Virus record (IMG/VR): IMGVR_UViG_3300042350_003801 | DNA from: a virus | Taxonomy: Duplodnaviria > Caudoviricetes | Direction: 5' to 3' (one strand) | Length of the DNA stretch: 64,000 nucleotides | Shown here: positions 8,335 through 64,000 of the stretch, one piece after another | Layout: each line of letters opens with the position of its first letter | Position numbering within the stretch: position 1 is the first letter of the stretch | Notes under the pieces: generated by a model | What the model saw: only the letters and a program-made list of their open reading frames with translations | Told to the model about the DNA's origin: nothing | Database searches by the model: none | Program-made: the position numbers and the translations under genes

Positions 8335-11086
8335 TAGTATTAATCAAATTTTCTAGTTCGTTTACCTGTTCAAGTTCCACTTCAGCAGAATCAGAATCCT
8401 TCTTACTATCGTATGTATTATGATAATACAGCGTCTTGACCCCCATCTTGTATGCATAAAGAACTTCGCCGAGAATAAGACTCATTGGGACTTCCTTATC
8501 GGGGAACATCTCTGGATTGTATGCAGTATTGGCACTGATTGACTGGTCAATAAACTTTTGAAGAACCGCAACAATGTTAAGATAACCAATATTAGACGGG
8601 GCATCCCATAGTAGACTATAATTATTCTTTAAAGATGAATATTGTGGAACAATTTGCTTAAGTCTACGCTTAACCGATAGATGTTCTCTTGGCATTTCAA
8701 TACCATTTGGGGCATTTAACATCAGGCTTGATGATTCACCGGGCATCGCACAACTGAGAGTAGAATGTCTCAAGCCATATTGTATAATGTCTTGCCGCAG
8801 TTGTTCCCAATCGTGCTGTAGTGGAACCGAACAAATTTCATCAACATCTTTCTTGTAAGTATCAATAGGAAGAATACCATCTGCATACTTCGTTCTACCA
8901 AAGTATTCACAATGGCCGCGTTCTTGTGCAATCTTATTAGATGCCCTTAAAAGGAAGTATTGAATACTTTCACCCAGTCTATGGCAACTATCCCAGGCCG
9001 ATTGTTCGTGATAAGATTGACCAAGTTTAGCAAGATAGTGAGCCAGACCCATAATACCAATTCCTAGAGACCTTCTCGCCCTTGTTGAAATTTCCGCAGC
9101 CTTAACAAGATAATCTTGCCATTCAATCAACTCTTCAAGAGCCCTTACAATCAATTCACAGCACTCCTCTAGTTCCTTATCGTTTTTGATTGTTCCAACA
9201 TTCAGTCCTCCGAGAATACACAAAGAAATTTCTGCCAGTTCATCTTCAAGGCTTTGAATAGGATGAACCGGCAAAGTTACCTCGACACAGTTATGAACCA
9301 AAATTCCATTTGCAAAGAAGTTATGCGTTCCCTCTACTGTAATGTCATAGACTGGGATTTCTTCTTCTAGGTATTCAATAGTTCTATATTTATTTTTAAC
9401 TTTTTTAATTCCATCATCCCATAGAACAACTAGCTGATCTGTCCCCTGAATATCTTTTGCCTCAACATACCCACGATTTTCTGTGAAGACTTTATGCTCA
9501 GGTGTTAAAATAACCCGACCATCATTAAGAGACAATACTTTCGCGCTGGGAGATGTTTGAGCAAATGCTGTGATTGGACTCCAAACTCTTTCACCTTTTT
9601 CAGTATCGTAAGAAAGAACTTGAATTTTAGGAACATCGCTTTCTTTGCGAAATGAAACCTCTCTTTCTCTATCGAGAAAATAATCCTCCAACTCTCGAAT
9701 CTCAATTTCAGCACTGCATAGTTCCCAACAGGAACCAATGGATACTGGATACTCAATTCTAATTTTGGTGTCACCAGCAACACAGAGGTTGCTCATACTA
9801 ATATGGTCTTTAAAAGAACTATGAGTATTGCAATGGTCAATATTCATAATGTAAATGCGACCAGTTTCGCTTCTTTCTTTGAGAATATTCAAAATAAGTT
9901 CCTGGGCTTTTACTTTACGCTTAGGAATAGTCGGATCATTCTCATATTGAACATAAAGGTCATCAAAACGTTCAGTTCCAAACGATTCTTCTAGATTGGG
10001 AACGTGGTGAGGAGAAAATAGAGTAATTTCTCCATCTTGAATATAACGCTCATAGAATAGTTTTGAAATCTTGATTGCATAATCAATATTTCTCACTCTG
10101 TTTTCATCATTGCCCTTATTATTCTTAAGGACAATAATATCTTCAATCTCTTGATGCCAAATGCTAACGTATGCCGTCATACTCCCTTTTCTTACGCCAC
10201 CTTGATGGCAAGATTCAAGAGACGCCTGAAACTTTTTAAGATATGGAATCAAACCCGATGAAATAACTTTACCCTTACGAATTTTACTCCTAATGCCACG
10301 AATTTTACTAACGTCAATACCAACACCGGCTCCACCTGAAACGTATTTCATCATTGCTCCATCAGATGCAATGATGCTGTCAAGTGTATCATCTACATCA
10401 ATGAGACAACAAGATGCAGCCTGCTTATCTGGCGTTCTGACACTTGCCATTACGGGTGTGGGCAGATTAATCTTATGCTTACTTACAACCTCATAATAAC
10501 GCTTAACATATGATAGCCTTACATCTTTTGAATAATTTGCAAAGATTGTAAGAGCAATCATAATATACATAAACTGAGGCGTCTCGAAGACCTGTTTAGT
10601 ATCACGGTCTTGAACAAGATATTTATCTTCAGCCTGCTTAAGACCAGCATAGGTGAAAAGAAAATCTCGGTCGTGGTCAATGAAAGAATTTACGGTATCA
10701 ATTTCTTCTTTTGAATATTTGGTGTAAATATCTGCATCATAATATTCTCGGGCAATGCAAAAATTAATATGTTCTTCAAGATGTGGCATATCAATACGGC
10801 CACCGTATAAACGCTTACGAATAGAAAAAAGAAGCAATCTAGCCGCAACATATTGATAATTTGGATGGTCCAAACTGATTAAATCCGATGCAGACTTAAC
10901 AAGAATCTGCTGAATTTCATCAGTTGTAATTCCAGCATAAAACTGAAGACCAGAGTTCATTTCAATCTGCGAGGCAGATACATTGGCCAAACCAACGCAA
11001 GCACAATTCACCATATCGTGAATTTTTTCTAGCATCAATGGCTCAACATTGCCATTGCGCTTAACTACAGTAATACCATTGCTCAT
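8288..11086 (-). CDS. nrdA: ribonucleotide reductase class Ia alpha subunit with intein
   Basis: ATP cone, PTPV, SCCL, SNL-[intein]-CVE, C-terminal CEGC; ATG at 11086 overlaps the primase stop. Confidence 0.97.
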   Translation of the reverse strand: MSNGITVVKRNGNVEPLMLEKIHDMVNCACVGLANVSASQIEMNSGLQFYAGITTDEIQQILVKSASDLISLDHPNYQYVAARLLLFSIRKRLYGGRIDMPHLEEHINFCIAREYYDADIYTKYSKEEIDTVNSFIDHDRDFLFTYAGLKQAEDKYLVQDRDTKQVFETPQFMYIMIALTIFANYSKDVRLSYVKRYYEVVSKHKINLPTPVMASVRTPDKQAASCCLIDVDDTLDSIIASDGAMMKYVSGGAGVGIDVSKIRGIRSKIRKGKVISSGLIPYLKKFQASLESCHQGGVRKGSMTAYVSIWHQEIEDIIVLKNNKGNDENRVRNIDYAIKISKLFYERYIQDGEITLFSPHHVPNLEESFGTERFDDLYVQYENDPTIPKRKVKAQELILNILKERSETGRIYIMNIDHCNTHSSFKDHISMSNLCVAGDTKIRIEYPVSIGSCWELCSAEIEIRELEDYFLDREREVSFRKESDVPKIQVLSYDTEKGERVWSPITAFAQTSPSAKVLSLNDGRVILTPEHKVFTENRGYVEAKDIQGTDQLVVLWDDGIKKVKNKYRTIEYLEEEIPVYDITVEGTHNFFANGILVHNCVEVTLPVHPIQSLEDELAEISLCILGGLNVGTIKNDKELEECCELIVRALEELIEWQDYLVKAAEISTRARRSLGIGIMGLAHYLAKLGQSYHEQSAWDSCHRLGESIQYFLLRASNKIAQERGHCEYFGRTKYADGILPIDTYKKDVDEICSVPLQHDWEQLRQDIIQYGLRHSTLSCAMPGESSSLMLNAPNGIEMPREHLSVKRRLKQIVPQYSSLKNNYSLLWDAPSNIGYLNIVAVLQKFIDQSISANTAYNPEMFPDKEVPMSLILGEVLYAYKMGVKTLYYHNTYDSKKDSDSAEVELEQVNELENLINTIETSEGEDYCEGCSI
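9290..9784 (-). mobile_element. mini-intein in NrdA (165 aa, no endonuclease)
   Basis: CVAGDT...TPEHKVFT...VYDITVEGTHNFFANGILVHN/C. Confidence 0.93.
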
Positions 11087-57227: not shown

Positions 57228-58208
57228 TTAAGAATAGCATAAACCTTTACAGGTTTTTTCTGGAGCAAAAGTCGCTAGAGATTTCTTTGTATTTTTCTCT
57301 ATTCTTTCAATAATTTCACCGCAGGCAGTTTCAATTTCTTCTTCTGTGAACTTAACTCTTGGTTCATTCAGACGAGTTGCCAGTTGTGAATCCATTCCAC
57401 AGATTCTCATTGGAGAGGGGTAAAACGGAACATCCCGCTCAATGATATGAAACACATCTGGATAAGAAATATTAACTTTATGGGTTCCAGTAATAAAGAC
57501 TGATGCATCTTGATTTACTGCTCTTGCAATATGCTGACCACAACTATCACAACCGATAAAATAATCTGCTGCCTTAATGACCCCCGCCCATTCTCTTAGA
57601 TTTGGGTCTGGCAATGGAATGAATGTCTTACCATCATAGAAATCTTTTTCTCCCATAAAGATGATGTTGTAATTTTTTGAAAGAATGGATATAATCTGCT
57701 CAAATGACTTATCTGAAAGTGAGCGATAAGTTGGGTCAAAGACACCCATCGGACAACGATTGGCACTTCTACCATAAGGCTGAATAACGATTGTTTTTGA
57801 CTTTTTTTGATGCTCCTTTGCCTGGTAAACAACTTCGTGACCTTTAACAATCTCTAAATCTGAAAGATTTAGAGATAATTCTGGTAGGTCAGAATGGTCG
57901 GTTGTTCCATTGATCTCTTGGTCAAATGCTTCCATCAAAGAGATTTCTTGACGGTAATATGCCGGAATTTTATAAGGTTCTGGCGTGATAATATTTGTGG
58001 CATCCCAGAAATATCTTTCAAATGTTCCTTTTGTTTCAGGATTGAAGGTTCTATTTTGAAGTTCTGAAATGCCCCAGGTCATAAAGTCCCAACCGTGAAC
58101 CATTACATACCATTCTTTGTTTGAGTGAAGTTGATGATATTTTAGTAGGGCCGGAATTGCAGTGATTGCTCTCCCCAATCCTCCGTCAATAATGATAATC
58201 GTGCTCAT
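57228..58208 (-). CDS. GT9 (heptosyltransferase-like) glycosyltransferase
   Basis: DGGLG..I.A.PA, IVIQPYG, FIGCDS..QH.A.A. Confidence 0.7.
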   Translation of the reverse strand: MSTIIIIDGGLGRAITAIPALLKYHQLHSNKEWYVMVHGWDFMTWGISELQNRTFNPETKGTFERYFWDATNIITPEPYKIPAYYRQEISLMEAFDQEINGTTDHSDLPELSLNLSDLEIVKGHEVVYQAKEHQKKSKTIVIQPYGRSANRCPMGVFDPTYRSLSDKSFEQIISILSKNYNIIFMGEKDFYDGKTFIPLPDPNLREWAGVIKAADYFIGCDSCGQHIARAVNQDASVFITGTHKVNISYPDVFHIIERDVPFYPSPMRICGMDSQLATRLNEPRVKFTEEEIETACGEIIERIEKNTKKSLATFAPEKTCKGLCYS

Positions 58209-59923
58209 TGATATAGAACTCTAAATGATTTTTTAATTTTTTTCTTTTGAACGATATAATTTCCAATCACGAGATAGTCAATATCTAAATTTAAAAATGA
58301 CTCAACTGCGTGTTTTGGTGATTCAACAATAGGTTCGCCATTATCATTGAATGATGTATTTAGAACTACAGGAATACCTGTTTTTTCTTTAAGTTTTTGA
58401 AGTAAAAGATTTGTCTGAGGATGAAGTTCTTGATTGACTGTTTGAATTCTACAAGTATAATCAACGTGTGTAATTGCCGGAATAATGTGTGCCTTGTCTC
58501 CTCTTACTGTCAATGAATACAACATATAAGGAGACTTATAATCTTCATAAAAGTATTCATTGAGATGTTCTTCCAGAATGATACCAGCAAAAGGTCTCCA
58601 ATATTCCCGGTGCTTCACTCTTGAATTGAGAATGTCTTTGTTTTCTTTTCTGGTTGGGCTCATTAAGATTGAACGAGATCCCAGTGCTCTTGCGCCAAAT
58701 TCAGAACGATTTTGAAACCAAGCGATGATTTTATTTTGTGCAATATAATCAGCGGCTAAAGAACATAGTTCCTCAAAGTCTTCATATTTTGTGAATGTGA
58801 CTTTATGTTGGGTAAGTTCTTCTTCTATTTCTTCATTAGAGTATTCTTTACTTAGAAGTGCAATATTTTCGGGAAGTTCAATAGTTTCATTATTTTGAAA
58901 TGCTCCAAAAAGGGCGGCACCAAAATGAAGTCCAGTATCACTCGGGTATGGAGGAATGTGCATATTTTGCGCGAATTGATTATTACGAACTGCACTATTT
59001 CCAAGAACATTCAAAAATGACCCACCGGCAAGACATAGATTGTCTTCAAGATAAGACTTTGTTTTAAGTTCACCGACATAATCAACAAGAGCAGTTTCAA
59101 AGTTTTTTTGGAGAATATATGCCTGTTCGTCTGCGGTTTTTAGAATGGAGTGGGACTTGGAATCAAATACAACATAAGGAACCTCATTGTAATGAATGTC
59201 TGATGAAAGTTGATATTCTTTATACTCTTCTTTGTATGGAAGATTTCCATAGGCGGAAAGACCCATTATCTTGCCGTCCCAACTTTCTCTATACTTTTCA
59301 TCAAAGGCATCAATGGTTTTTCTGACTTTCTTGCAGTATATTTTATGTGATGCATGGTGATAATATGAACCAAAATTATTAGTTCCTGGAATACCATTGA
59401 AGAATCTAAAGATTCCTTTTTCTTTGTTAAAGTATCCAATTGAATTAGTTTCTGCCGTTAGGGAATCTTCTTGATTATAAGAATATATTACCGAACCTGC
59501 ACCATCTAGAGTTATAAATGTTCCTTCATTAAAATCCGATGAAAAAACTGATGAGGCAGCGTGAGATAGATGATGCGAAATTATTTTGAAGGTAGCATTA
59601 GGAAACAGAGATTTGATTTTATCCTCAATGATTCCTTCTTTGAGTTGACAGTAAAAGTATTCCAGGCACATTGATGGAATACAAATCAGATGGATATCTT
59701 CTGCAGTGATATTACCCTCTTGGAGGCAGTATTCAATGGAGTTGATGGGGAAGTTGCCATCGTGCTTGATGCGGGTTAAACGCTCTTCAGAGATGCTACA
59801 GATGTGCTTCCCGTTGATGAGAAGCGTTGCCCCGGCATCGTGAACCCAAGTTAGATTTTGATGGTCATCATATGATTGGTTTGCATCCCAATCAAAGGCA
59901 CCATAAAGACCAAGAATAATCAT
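58205..59923 (-). CDS. carbamoyltransferase (NodU/CmcH family)
   Basis: HDAGA, SEERLTR.KH, HH.SHA, LDGAG, GK.MGLSAYG, E.GARALG.RS, LNTSFN..GEPIVE. Confidence 0.93.
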   Translation of the reverse strand: MIILGLYGAFDWDANQSYDDHQNLTWVHDAGATLLINGKHICSISEERLTRIKHDGNFPINSIEYCLQEGNITAEDIHLICIPSMCLEYFYCQLKEGIIEDKIKSLFPNATFKIISHHLSHAASSVFSSDFNEGTFITLDGAGSVIYSYNQEDSLTAETNSIGYFNKEKGIFRFFNGIPGTNNFGSYYHHASHKIYCKKVRKTIDAFDEKYRESWDGKIMGLSAYGNLPYKEEYKEYQLSSDIHYNEVPYVVFDSKSHSILKTADEQAYILQKNFETALVDYVGELKTKSYLEDNLCLAGGSFLNVLGNSAVRNNQFAQNMHIPPYPSDTGLHFGAALFGAFQNNETIELPENIALLSKEYSNEEIEEELTQHKVTFTKYEDFEELCSLAADYIAQNKIIAWFQNRSEFGARALGSRSILMSPTRKENKDILNSRVKHREYWRPFAGIILEEHLNEYFYEDYKSPYMLYSLTVRGDKAHIIPAITHVDYTCRIQTVNQELHPQTNLLLQKLKEKTGIPVVLNTSFNDNGEPIVESPKHAVESFLNLDIDYLVIGNYIVQKKKIKKSFRVLYQ

Positions 59924-60531
59924 AAAGTTGGGAAATTCATTTTGCCTTTGGGGAGGGCAATAATATTGAAGGATATTGAAATTCGCTCTTCGTCGTGATT
60001 ATTGGTTTCCACTGAATGAGGAAGGTATGCGGGCCATAGAAGAACGGCTCCTTCTTGTGGTTCAATGCGGAGCATATCACCAGTGAATTCATTTTTGGTT
60101 TGCGTTAATGCACAACCACTCCAAAGACGATTTAGACCCGGATTAAAGACTACTAGACGACCACTTTCGGGTGGTGCAGAAAGATAGAAGACGCCAGAGA
60201 ATGTTTGGTCGTGAATGTGCTCATTATTCATTGCCTGGCGAGTATTATTAAAGTTTACCCAGGCAGAAGTTAGAAATACATCACACTCAATGAAGTTGAG
60301 GTCTTCTACTGCTTGAAGTGCCATTGAGCATATGAACTCCAATAGAGGGCGAAGTTCTGGAACTCCTTGAAGTGTATCAGGGGAGTGGTAACCCGCAATA
60401 TTTGATTTTGCGATGGATGGATTATTTTCTTTGAAAGCTCTTACTGCTTGAAGAAAGGTTTCTTTTTGTTCTTTAAATTCAGGTAGCTCAGAACTCCAGA
60501 AAGGAGTTGAATAAATTGGCAACACTGTCAT
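59920..60531 (-). CDS. 2OG-Fe(II) oxygenase (TIGR02466-like)
   Basis: W.NFN, H.H..FSGVFY, P.YL.HSV, RISISFN. Confidence 0.88.
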   Translation of the reverse strand: MTVLPIYSTPFWSSELPEFKEQKETFLQAVRAFKENNPSIAKSNIAGYHSPDTLQGVPELRPLLEFICSMALQAVEDLNFIECDVFLTSAWVNFNNTRQAMNNEHIHDQTFSGVFYLSAPPESGRLVVFNPGLNRLWSGCALTQTKNEFTGDMLRIEPQEGAVLLWPAYLPHSVETNNHDEERISISFNIIALPKGKMNFPTL

Positions 60532-60732
60532 AATATGGATTTTGTAAAGACTTTTTATTTAGGGGATTAGTTTTGCGTAGTGAGACATCTTTAAATTGTT
60601 TTTAATTACAAGTCTTTCTTTAGAAAAGAGTGTTTTGGTAAACATTTAGTTATTAAAAACTCTGAAAATCGTGTGGAAGGAGTCTCTGTTCAGTTGCTAG
60701 AACTGACCATTCTGCTCATTATGAATGACGAA

Positions 60733-61066
60733 CTATTTAGTTGACCTCAACCAACCTGATGCCTGTTTAATGCACGGTTGACTTACTTCAATAAAAAGAG
60801 AAAATTGTTTTCGGTAACGATATTAATATCTTTGCTCATTCTTACTAAAAAACATAAAAATCTAGACTAGAAACTAATTCATCTAAATCCTGCCTCTTGT
60901 CTTTATGTCTTGCTGCACGGCAGAGCAAAGCAGCACAATCTAAACAAACATTTTGAATTCTTGTTCCTAGAGTGAATTTGTATTCTCTAGGAAAATTTTT
61001 AACTATTATAAAAACTCTTTTATTTAATTCCGAAATATCTCTGTAGATTTGCAAACTTTCAATCAT
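60733..61066 (-). pseudogene. avd: Avd-like four-helix-bundle DGR accessory protein, disrupted by two 1-nt deletions
   Basis: LQIY..V.NFPREYKFTLG.RIQ; adding one T and one A restores ..FLVRMSKDINIVTEKQF..IKQASGWLRSTK (111 aa). Confidence 0.75.
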
Positions 61067-61107
61067 TTTAAAAACTCCAGCAAAATACAAATTTCAAAAT
61101 TCAAAAT

Positions 61108-61605
61108 TCAAAGAAAAACACACCGGACGGAACGCACACACCAAGCGTTGGTTTTGCCGAGGCTGCTCTGGATACCATTAGTGAAGCTGAGGCTACAAGC
61201 GCCGGCCGCATTGCTCTCGCTAGAACTCCAATAGATCGTAGACGAATAAGTATCCCAAAAGGCGCGATTATTATATGCAGTAAACAATATATTCTGATCC
61301 GGTATAAACCAGTCGCAGGGATTAAACCCACAACAAATCAAACGATTACACACGTTAGGCCAACTGGAAATGCAACACAGTGAGTTCCCTCCGCCAACAA
61401 TTAAAGTGTTATTCCAACACCCACTTGCCCATTGGTCTCCTATTTGAGTATAAGCGGGGGCAACAATCCACGCTTGTCCACCCGCACGACGATAAACCGC
61501 TGAACCGTCGCCCAAAATGGTCCCCAAAGGACAGATACGAGCATAATAATCTGCCGCTTCTTTTGATCTTAACCACCAAGTTGTTGGTCCGATTACTACT
61601 GACAT
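61108..61605 (-). CDS. C-type-lectin-fold (DUF1566-like) putative DGR target protein
   Basis: WFIP..L, YWSSSE..A..F..G..K..CVRSVR C-terminus; 15 of 25 codons in the variable stretch end in C. Confidence 0.75.
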   Translation of the reverse strand: MSVVIGPTTWWLRSKEAADYYARICPLGTILGDGSAVYRRAGGQAWIVAPAYTQIGDQWASGCWNNTLIVGGGNSLCCISSWPNVCNRLICCGFNPCDWFIPDQNILFTAYNNRAFWDTYSSTIYWSSSESNAAGACSLSFTNGIQSSLGKTNAWCVRSVRCVFL

Positions 61606-61616
61606 TTTTATTCTCC

Positions 61617-64000
61617 TTAGGGAACTAGTGCTATGATTCCGGTTCTTACTAAACCGTCTGTTCCTCTTACTCTTACCGTAAGAGTGTTGTTGTTTGTAAG
61701 TTCAAAACTCATTGTTCTATTTATTGTCGGTGCCGATGTTGCTTCTAAACCAAACGTTGTAATACCCGTAATTGTGGCATTACCTTGAACGTGAAGAGTT
61801 GATGTAGGAACTGATGTTCCAACCCCAACGTTACCATTTCCGTTAACTTCAAAAATTGCAGTAATAGTTGAGCCTATAGATAAGTTAGTGGTAGAACCAA
61901 ATCCAACAACTGGGCTATTTACGCTAAAAAGACTACCAGAGACATTATTAGTAAGACTTAAAATCTGGTCAGGTATGCGCGTAGTGCTTGCGGTTCCAGT
62001 ATAAAAGTTAAGAGAACCTGTATCTCCAGTTGTAGGCGATACTATAATATGGTTTGTGGTTGGTGAGTTTGATAAATCACTAAATGGCTGCCTCGGTCTA
62101 ATCGGACCAAAGATTGTTACATCCCCATTAATTCTTTGTGGTGATACTGCTAGGACATTAAACGGCGTGGTAATGGCAGTATGTGCAACCCCTAAAATAA
62201 CACTACCTCTTACATCAAGTTTTGCACGAATTGATGTACCTATACCGACAATAGTATTACCTGCTCTGTCTATCCTAAATGATTGTTCTATAAATTCTGT
62301 GGGTCTGAATCCGCCATATTCTATAAAAGAATATGGTTTTGGAGTATAGTTTGAAACTACGAATAAATCGTCATCAAAGTTATCATTTAAGGTTAAAATT
62401 TGATTACCATAGCCATTAAAAATTAAAGTTCCATTATCTCTTGCATATGCCTTTATTTCTACTGCATTAGTGTTTGCTACACCAGAATAATTAAATTGAG
62501 TAGCAATTCCAATAAAAGTTAAAGATGGTCCAGCACTTGTTGTTGTTCCAATTCCAGAACCTGCCGAGAGTTTTAAATTGCCGATAACGTCAATTTTGCT
62601 GGTTGGATTTGTAGTTCCCAATCCAACAAAACCTGTGGATGGGATAAATACAAAACTGTTTGTTCCCGATGTAGTAATACCTATACTAGAAACTCCAATA
62701 TTGCTAGCAAATGTTGGATATGTTGGATATGTTGGATTTGATGTTAGAATTTGAGTTACTACTGAAAATGCCCCAACATCCGTTAATTTACTACCATCTC
62801 CATAATAGGTTACAATTCCAGAAGCAGCGGTGATAATACCTGTAGAGATTTGAACTAATCCCAGAGTAGAAATACCAGATACCCTTAAAGAAGATACGGA
62901 TGCGATACCCCCTATTACGTTTGTTGAAATGCCGGAATTTTGAGCATAGGTTGCAATTCCTGCAATTGTAGAGTAACCCGATACTGAAACATAATCAGCA
63001 ATTGTAACTGTTGCTATACCATTTGAACCTGGATTAGCAAAAGCGACTACATTGGGGCCTGTAAAATTTACTGAAGTAATGCTGGATGCAGTTCCTACTA
63101 CGTTTCCTTCATCTCTAATTGTAATGCCGATGAGATCAACCGCCGCTGCTGAGGTTAATGGTGCCCAATAGGGGTCCAGGCCAGTACCATTTGTAATAAG
63201 AACTTGACCAGTTAAACCTGGGGCTAAAGATGTAGTTATCCCTGGACTCTTTTGAAACAGAATAGAACCCTGAACGCCCCCTATAATATTTCTTGCGGTT
63301 ATCGCAGTACCACTTAGATTGCCGACAAAATTTGTGGCGGTGACAATACCCCCCGAAATTTGAGCGCCACTAATAGATGAAAGACCGGTTACATTTAAGG
63401 ATGTTACGGCGGCAATTCCACCGATTACATCTGTTGATGTATCAGAAATTACTGCATATGTTGCAGCATTTGCGTTTCCCGTTAAATTTCCAACAAAACT
63501 AGTTGCCGTTACTATTCCCGCTGTAATATTAGGAGTTCCGGTGAGGCTCTCAGCAGCCGCTGAGGTGCCAGCCGTTTGAGCATAGTTCGCAGTTGTTGCG
63601 CTATTTGCAAACCCAGCATTTTCAGCATAAGTTATTGTTCCAGCAATACCACCAGCGCTAATGCCAGTCAACCCTGAACCATCCCCGATGAACCTAGTTG
63701 CAGTGACAATACCACCTGAAATTTGAGCGCCACTAATAGTTGAAGGACCGGTTACATTTAAGGATGTTACAGCTGCAATTCCACCAATTACATTATATGC
63801 AACCCCAGCATTTTCAGCATAAGTTATTGTTCCAGCAATACCTCCAGCGGAAATGCCAGTCAACCCTGAACCATCCCCGATGAACCTAGTTGCAGTGACA
63901 ATACCACCTGAAATTTGAGCGCCACTAATAGTTGAAGGACCGGTTACATTTAAGGATGTTACAGCTGCAATTCCACCAATTACATTATATGCAACCCCAG
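61617..64000 (-). CDS. tail fibre-like protein, 5' end outside the window
   Basis: GIVTAT.F.G.. and YA..AG repeats, VGVGT..PT..L.V.G; frame open to the window edge. Confidence 0.85.
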   Translation of the reverse strand, partial: GVAYNVIGGIAAVTSLNVTGPSTISGAQISGGIVTATRFIGDGSGLTGISAGGIAGTITYAENAGVAYNVIGGIAAVTSLNVTGPSTISGAQISGGIVTATRFIGDGSGLTGISAGGIAGTITYAENAGFANSATTANYAQTAGTSAAAESLTGTPNITAGIVTATSFVGNLTGNANAATYAVISDTSTDVIGGIAAVTSLNVTGLSSISGAQISGGIVTATNFVGNLSGTAITARNIIGGVQGSILFQKSPGITTSLAPGLTGQVLITNGTGLDPYWAPLTSAAAVDLIGITIRDEGNVVGTASSITSVNFTGPNVVAFANPGSNGIATVTIADYVSVSGYSTIAGIATYAQNSGISTNVIGGIASVSSLRVSGISTLGLVQISTGIITAASGIVTYYGDGSKLTDVGAFSVVTQILTSNPTYPTYPTFASNIGVSSIGITTSGTNSFVFIPSTGFVGLGTTNPTSKIDVIGNLKLSAGSGIGTTTSAGPSLTFIGIATQFNYSGVANTNAVEIKAYARDNGTLIFNGYGNQILTLNDNFDDDLFVVSNYTPKPYSFIEYGGFRPTEFIEQSFRIDRAGNTIVGIGTSIRAKLDVRGSVILGVAHTAITTPFNVLAVSPQRINGDVTIFGPIRPRQPFSDLSNSPTTNHIIVSPTTGDTGSLNFYTGTASTTRIPDQILSLTNNVSGSLFSVNSPVVGFGSTTNLSIGSTITAIFEVNGNGNVGVGTSVPTSTLHVQGNATITGITTFGLEATSAPTINRTMSFELTNNNTLTVRVRGTDGLVRTGIIALVP
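63612..64000. repeat. 192-bp tandem repeat (64 aa), at least two near-identical units
   Basis: CCCAG recurs at 63612, 63804 and 63996 with matching intervening sequence. Confidence 0.9.

Follow-up and report, generated by a model that had tools for sequence, protein, structure and literature searches.

Results

Organization of the locus

All of the relevant genes at the locus were called as open reading frames (ORFs) on the minus strand of the window, meaning the whole 64,000-nucleotide stretch of DNA that was analysed. Read along that strand, the locus begins with a tail-fibre-like structural gene (61617..64000), the ORF of which continues past the edge of the window and comprises 883 aa in the full contig (L002 gene table). 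This ORF is long and repeat-rich and has a weak PHROG match to a baseplate wedge/tail family (E 1.4e-9); its designation as a fibre gene draws in part on its position and repetitive sequence. After a gap of 11 nt there follows an intact ORF with a strong AAGGAG ribosome-binding site (61108..61605, minus strand), which encodes a 165-aa stand-alone C-type-lectin-like protein of the DUF1566/Lcl_C type, the target of a diversity-generating retroelement (DGR). Codons ~120-162 of this gene (61118..61249) constitute an orphan variable repeat (VR), as defined by the match to the template repeat (TR) of a relative, L001, and the 22-nt block at the 3' end of the VR (61118-61139), identical to the end of that TR, is presumed to be an IMH-type homing signal. 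Three TTTTGAA-type direct repeats (61090..61113) overlap the stop codon of the target gene and lie in the spacer before avd.

Beyond these repeats lies an avd pseudogene (60736..61090), recognised by a bAvd match and carrying two 1-bp homopolymer deletions. It is followed by the conserved avd-TR spacer (60604..60735), which is 98-100% identical to L001 8876-9004 and is normally found directly upstream of a TR. Here it runs into a deletion junction (60603..60607) with AATT microhomology at 60604-60607, and from position 60603 the sequence consists of the last codons of a reverse transcriptase (RT) gene. This 3' remnant (60559..60603) encodes KNNLKMSHYAKLIP followed by a stop codon and was assigned by translation and by a tblastn match to RT residues 329-348. 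A 2OG-Fe(II) oxygenase gene (59920..60531; Pfam 2OG-FeII_Oxy_5, E 1e-21) comes next and is the conserved downstream neighbour of the cassette in every relative; between it and the 81-aa ORF that remains of avd (60845-61090) lie about 310 bp in which no ORF was called. The oxygenase gene and the genes for a carbamoyltransferase and a 326-aa protein (57228-60531) accompany the locus in each of the six closest relatives, and in one relative, L027, an extra sulfotransferase gene is inserted among the conserved downstream genes.

Genes for Gp23, Peptidase_S77 (the gp21-type protease) and T4_CASP are located 5-8 kb from the locus, and the DNA polymerase is of the T4 type, with 50% identity to cyanomyoviruses and 2681 T4-like matches. 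These core genes of the T4 type (for the gp23 capsid protein, the gp21 protease and the DNA polymerase) mark the carrier, a freshwater phage, as a T4-like myovirus, and by analogy with its T4-like kin it is presumably lytic. Searches of GenBank phages (50,697 records) with the locus and with the target, by megablast and tblastn, returned no close match, and an exact 43-mer search of IMG/VR was likewise negative.

[quoted passage not shown]

From the letters of the DNA and its ORFs, an earlier sequence-only reading had described a small C-type-lectin-fold gene directly after the fibre gene, and gene order, Pfam, structure prediction and structural comparison all agree with that description. The only Pfam match of the 165-aa protein, to Lcl_C/DUF1566, is weak (E 1e-3; 19.6 bits against a gathering score of 34.9). 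An AF2 model, built from an alignment of 33 homologues of 37-81% identity, reached a mean pLDDT of 88. Its best Foldseek match in the PDB was 8q4e, the C-terminal domain of Legionella Lcl (E 9e-6; TM 0.67 by target). Dozens of C-type lectin-like domains ranked next, among them snaclec and NK-receptor domains. Taken together, the weak Lcl_C match and the AF2 and Foldseek results indicate that the lectin fold holds. The gene is intact and presumably functional, and its fold, its position and analogy with known systems suggest that the protein is probably a receptor-binding adhesin that acts with the upstream fibre.

The C-terminal codons of the target gene form a genuine variable repeat

An excess of C-ending codons had been noted in the last 40 or so codons of the lectin gene, a stretch that was said to look like a DGR VR. 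Such codons make up 17 of the 42 in 61108-61233 and 18 of the 42 in target codons 121-162, against a background of 16% both in the rest of the target gene and in 9456 codons taken from 20 long ORFs of the window (binomial p=3e-5 for codons 121-162). When the cassette of L001 was compared with the window by blastn, its TR matched 61249-61118 at 81%. In this comparison, which uses the TR of a relative, the cognate TR of the window itself being deleted, TR adenines account for 17 of the 22 mismatches (Fisher p=1e-6), and only 5 of the 91 non-adenine positions differ. The VR of L001 shows the same pattern against its own TR, with 21 of 23 mismatches on TR adenines. Between the two VRs there are 28 nucleotide differences in 20 codons, and all 20 of these codon changes are non-synonymous. 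Outside the VR, codons 1-50 of the two target genes are identical, and 7 of the 11 changed codons among codons 51-102 are synonymous. As adenine-specific mismatches and exclusively non-synonymous VR codons are the signature of a DGR, the stretch in the window is therefore a genuine VR, in accord with the sequence-only reading.

The VR lies at the C-terminus of the lectin-fold target, where it covers the C-terminal strands of the protein and has a conserved VR(S/A)(V/F)RC motif at its end. The GC-rich VRSVR segment that had been pointed out at the end of the stretch is present, and a GC-rich 3' block of 22 nt is common to the VR and TR ends. The short repeats of TTTGAA type were also correctly recognised; they take the form of a (TTTTGAA)x3-type array at 61090-61113 that is conserved in L001, L025, L026 and L024. 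Folding of the repeats and the region after the VR was no better than that of shuffled sequence (z=0.47), and a BPP-1-like hairpin after the VR is therefore unsupported.

An intact cassette occupies the same position in a close relative

The target protein, used as a query against IMG/VR, led to IMGVR_UViG_3300034198_008044 (L001), which is syntenic with the window. Across avd and the spacer behind it the two sequences are 98.5% identical, and their oxygenase proteins are 95% identical. At the same position L001 carries a complete cassette, consisting of a 165-aa target, a 119-aa Avd, a TR and a 349-aa RT, followed by the oxygenase gene. The identity of the Avd protein is given by matches to bAvd (E 9e-16) and to the PHROG 'Avd protein of DGR' (E 3e-19), and that of the RT by matches to RVT_1 (E 7e-17) and to the PHROG 'Reverse transcriptase' (E 1e-74), together with IGNLTSQ and YMDD motifs in the translation. 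The lack of a TR in all relatives had been named among the findings that would speak against the sequence-only reading, and L001 has one at about 9015-9149.

Deletion of TR and RT and frameshifting of avd

An avd gene had been reported to follow the repeats. The homology to avd was upheld, but the gene is not intact. Alignment with three intact relatives and with an independent Logan assembly revealed two 1-bp deletions in homopolymers, the first reducing T6 to T5 at 60856-60860 and the second reducing A5 to A4 at 60809-60812. The first avd ORF (60845-61090) accordingly ends after 81 aa and matches bAvd (E 4e-9) over profile positions 6-62 of 107 only. As a result of the two slips, avd is scattered over three frames within 60736-61090, as seen by tblastn with the Avd of L001.

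The same reading had stated that neither TR nor RT follows avd. The TR and nearly all of the RT gene are indeed absent, but 14 C-terminal codons of the 349-aa RT persist at 60559-60603. Relative to L001, the window lacks 1141 bp (9005-10145), comprising the TR and RT codons 1-334. The left end of this deletion is in the conserved spacer directly before the TR and the right end is at RT codon 334, and a 4-bp AATT microhomology is common to both. An imperfect 17-nt direct repeat around the AATT (L001:8999-9016 and L001:10140-10157) brackets the TR-RT unit, an arrangement that could predispose the cassette to repeated loss. A DGR-clade RT, a TR and an intact avd, the features of a functional DGR, are all missing from the locus, whereas a DGR-clade RT is present in the relatives L001, L006, L025 and L026.

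The lesions and the VR consensus recur in other assemblies

The identical target protein was found on 6 contigs, among them a JGI contig of 208,660 bp and a contig assembled by Logan from SRR27419728, the latter with the same two avd indels and the same junction. Contigs from four runs of four studies (lake metagenomes released 2020-2024) were compared over 60500-61700 and showed no difference across the junction or the VR, two of the four runs possibly being the source sample and contigs being consensus sequences in which minority variants are hidden. The comparison shows a stable VR consensus, which falls short of an absence of all variation.

The cassette has been lost repeatedly among relatives

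Intact cassettes are present in L001, L025 and L026 (the last with three tandem targets), as well as in the more distant L006 (two targets). At least two further relatives carry remnants with breakpoints other than that of the window: in L024 nothing but the initial 201 bp of the cassette is left, and in L005 avd residues 9-67 are joined to RT residues 289-347. L027 has no cassette at all, its three targets abutting the oxygenase gene directly, and ten more distant loci are similar. In a tree of the oxygenase, one tight clade (support 100/100) contains three intact loci, two remnants (the window and L024) and the cassette-free L027. Given these mixed states within a tight clade, the element must therefore have been lost at least 3 times among very close relatives.

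Tandem amplification of the target to 2-3 copies was seen in many relatives, with the DGR present or absent (L026:3417-5030, L027:2966-4492, L006:777-1807, L012-L019). In L026, the VRs of all three target copies match the single TR. As the target survives each loss and is often amplified, it therefore has a function independent of the DGR.

Search for a TR or RT outside the cassette

No TR was found in the 64-kb window by an adenine-tolerant scan, which returned A-rich chance matches only, and no repeats relevant to a TR were seen near the locus. Neither tblastn with 120 DGR RTs nor an HMM built from them detected an RT in the window or in 7.6 kb beyond it. In all, about 72 kb around the target was covered, of a genome of roughly 210-250 kb.

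A database search with the RT of L001 defined an RT clade of ~57 clusters with 59-94% identity, some of them carried by contigs 170-247 kb in length. None of the 120 top-ranking RT clusters was located on the 208,660-bp contig or on one of 250,336 bp. The GenBank phage records searched contained no RT of this clade; the best matches there, at up to 41% identity, belonged to Burkholderia phages of 45-57 kb, which include Magia, a phage described as temperate.

Discussion

A recently inactivated DGR

We conclude with high confidence that the locus is a recently inactivated DGR in a T4-like freshwater myovirus, in which TR and RT have been deleted, avd has been broken and the VR has been orphaned. 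The sequence-only reading had left a choice between a fossil DGR and a remote target served from elsewhere. The former is borne out by the intact cassette at the same locus in a relative, the mismatches at TR adenines, the scars of loss and the identity of the VR across lake metagenomes. The locus is a degenerate member of the canonical DGRs and does not represent a new kind of system.

The ancestor carried a canonical target(VR)-avd-TR-RT cassette between the fibre-adjacent lectin gene and the 2OG-Fe(II) oxygenase gene, as still seen in the relatives. According to the established DGR mechanism, an Avd-assisted RT would have copied the TR RNA with errors at adenines, and the cDNA would have homed at the GC-rich 3' block and replaced the last ~42 codons (~120-162) of the lectin gene. 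A deletion between short direct repeats sharing AATT took the TR and 334 of the 349 RT codons, and avd was broken by two homopolymer slips. The orphan VR would keep the last variant written and change by ordinary mutation only. With TR and RT lost and avd broken, one receptor-binding variant has therefore probably been frozen. The VR of the window differs from the TR of L001 at five non-adenine positions, at which the three TRs compared agree, while the VR of L001 itself has 2 such differences; the five differences fit drift after freezing.

Alternative explanations

It could be argued that a second DGR elsewhere in the genome (with RT, Avd and TR) continues to diversify the VR, the local cassette being redundant debris. 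Non-adjacent targets are known in phage genomes (PMC5758913), the VR retains a perfect 22-nt match to the TR end, the presumed homing signal, and the stretch searched amounts to about 72 kb of roughly 210-250 kb. However, that stretch around the target contains neither RT nor TR, none of the best RT clusters of the clade falls on either of the two long contigs, and the VR is identical in the contigs of all four runs (2020-2024), with the identical protein on 6 contigs. A remotely served target is therefore regarded as quite improbable, and the option is unnecessary.

A second alternative, also very improbable, is that kin supply the missing functions, the VR being rewritten from time to time, or the cassette being restored by recombination, on co-infection with a DGR-positive sibling of the L001 type. 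At the 3' end of the VR and in the flanking spacer the window is identical to L001, and DGR-positive and DGR-negative siblings with flanks of 94-99% identity occur in related lake metagenomes. Against it, the VR consensus of the contigs is invariant across samples, and the VR of the window contains non-adenine substitutions, which fresh homing would erase. If this explanation were true, loss of the cassette would not be a dead end.

That errors of assembly or sequencing produced the deletion and the frameshifts, or that the bias towards C-ending codons is merely the ordinary composition of a lectin gene that never had a DGR, deserves practically no credence: homopolymer indels are a frequent sequencing error and VR/TR repeats can confuse assemblers, but the artefact is rejected because independent assemblies and runs contain the same two indels and junction, the junction lies at AATT microhomology away from the VR/TR repeat (which rules out repeat collapse), and chance is contradicted by the adenine-specific mismatch pattern (p=1e-6) and by avd and RT remnants that are recognisable by homology.

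Comparison with known systems

A close counterpart of the cassette is the DGR of Bordetella phage BPP-1 (mtd-avd-TR-brt), the mechanism of which is summarised in PMC5758913. The intact relatives share with it the order of a target with C-terminal VR, avd, TR and RT, the adenine-specific differences between TR and VR, a GC-rich block common to the VR and TR ends, and a lectin-fold target encoded with tail-fibre genes. However, BPP-1 is a temperate phage of 42 kb, whereas the carrier here is a large T4-like and presumably obligately lytic myovirus, and its target, the 381-aa Mtd, contrasts with a small 165-aa stand-alone domain of the DUF1566/Lcl_C type. Moreover, no hairpin was detected after the VR of the window, the element in the window is dead (TR and RT deleted, avd frameshifted), and the RTs of this clade are at most 41% identical to those of cultured phages.

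Among DGR targets, those with DUF1566/Lcl_C domains (e.g., of the Legionella LdtA type; 8q4e) are closest to the window protein, providing its best structural and only Pfam match and likewise having a C-terminal VR. The window protein differs in being phage-encoded directly after a fibre gene, in having no lipoprotein signal and in a Pfam match below the gathering score. In position only, it resembles the adhesin gp38 of T4/T2-type phages, encoded by a small gene directly behind a large fibre gene (the long-tail-fibre gene 37). By analogy, both plausibly set receptor specificity through hypervariable segments, but gp38 varies by recombination and point mutation, with no retrohoming.

The sequence-only reading assigned most reported DGRs to temperate phages, a view that is dated. 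It agrees with Benler 2018 (PMC6199706), where DGRs were found in temperate phages only, but Cook 2021 (PMC7981956) found them to be widespread on predicted lytic phages. Roux 2021 (PMC8144416) provides a catalogue of viral DGRs targeting lectin-fold tail proteins, and DGRs are also treated in newer papers on crAss-like phages. The DGRs of virulent and uncultured phages in these sources (Cook 2021, PMC7981956; Roux 2021, PMC8144416; crAss-like phages) resemble the present case in the absence of lysogeny genes and in lectin-fold tail targets. However, the surveys consulted catalogue intact elements, and describe neither a T4-like carrier nor alleles that range from intact through decayed to absent among near-identical genomes. 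A non-exhaustive search of the literature found no T4-like DGR carrier, and the IMG-based catalogue of Roux may well include the intact relatives.

Implications

A canonical DGR does occur in T4-like myoviruses, which are absent among the DGR-bearing cultured phages in the copy of GenBank searched. The locus and its relatives offer a natural example of the death of a DGR, with near-identical genomes in which the element is intact, partly deleted or missing and with breakpoints known to the base. Such a series permits hypervariable and fixed receptor-binding proteins to be compared in the same lakes with respect to fitness, host range and persistence. For annotation, it cautions that a VR-like signature and an avd-like ORF need not mean an active DGR.

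A broader and rather doubtful proposal is that large T4-like aquatic myoviruses possess a DGR clade of their own (about 57 RT clusters, not in GenBank phage records) with a fibre-adjacent lectin target, that it is repeatedly switched off by small deletions, and that orphan VRs, which retain a perfect homing signal, may be rewritten, or re-armed through recombination, in co-infection with DGR-positive siblings. If true, strictly lytic phages would be polymorphic at the population level for receptor hypervariability, with an on and an off state.

Further sequence features of the cassette

Codons 103-120 of the target gene (61246-61299), upstream of the TR-templated part, differ between the window and L001 at 12 nt in 9 codons, 7 of them non-synonymous. 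At 8 of the 12 differing sites the window has A (e.g., AAT AAT vs TGT TGT). The TRs of all four intact relatives begin only at ~codon 120 and thus fail to account for these differences, the A bias of which could go back to an ancestral TR of greater length or could reflect selection.

The TR contains an (AAC)n tract (L001:9095-9125) of variable length; L025 has 3 units, L026 has 4 and L001 has 5. Compared with the VR, the TR is accordingly longer by 3 nt in L001 and shorter by 3 nt in L025. This suggests either that the TR has slipped since the last homing event or that the RT slips on the tract. Finally, the avd-TR spacer contains a small hairpin (TCAGTT / AACTGA; window 60690-60706), the loop of which is inverted in L025 (L025:4895-4915), where one stem mismatch is also repaired, so that base pairing is preserved despite the flipped sequence. 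This hairpin may belong to the DGR RNA or to its promoter or terminator.
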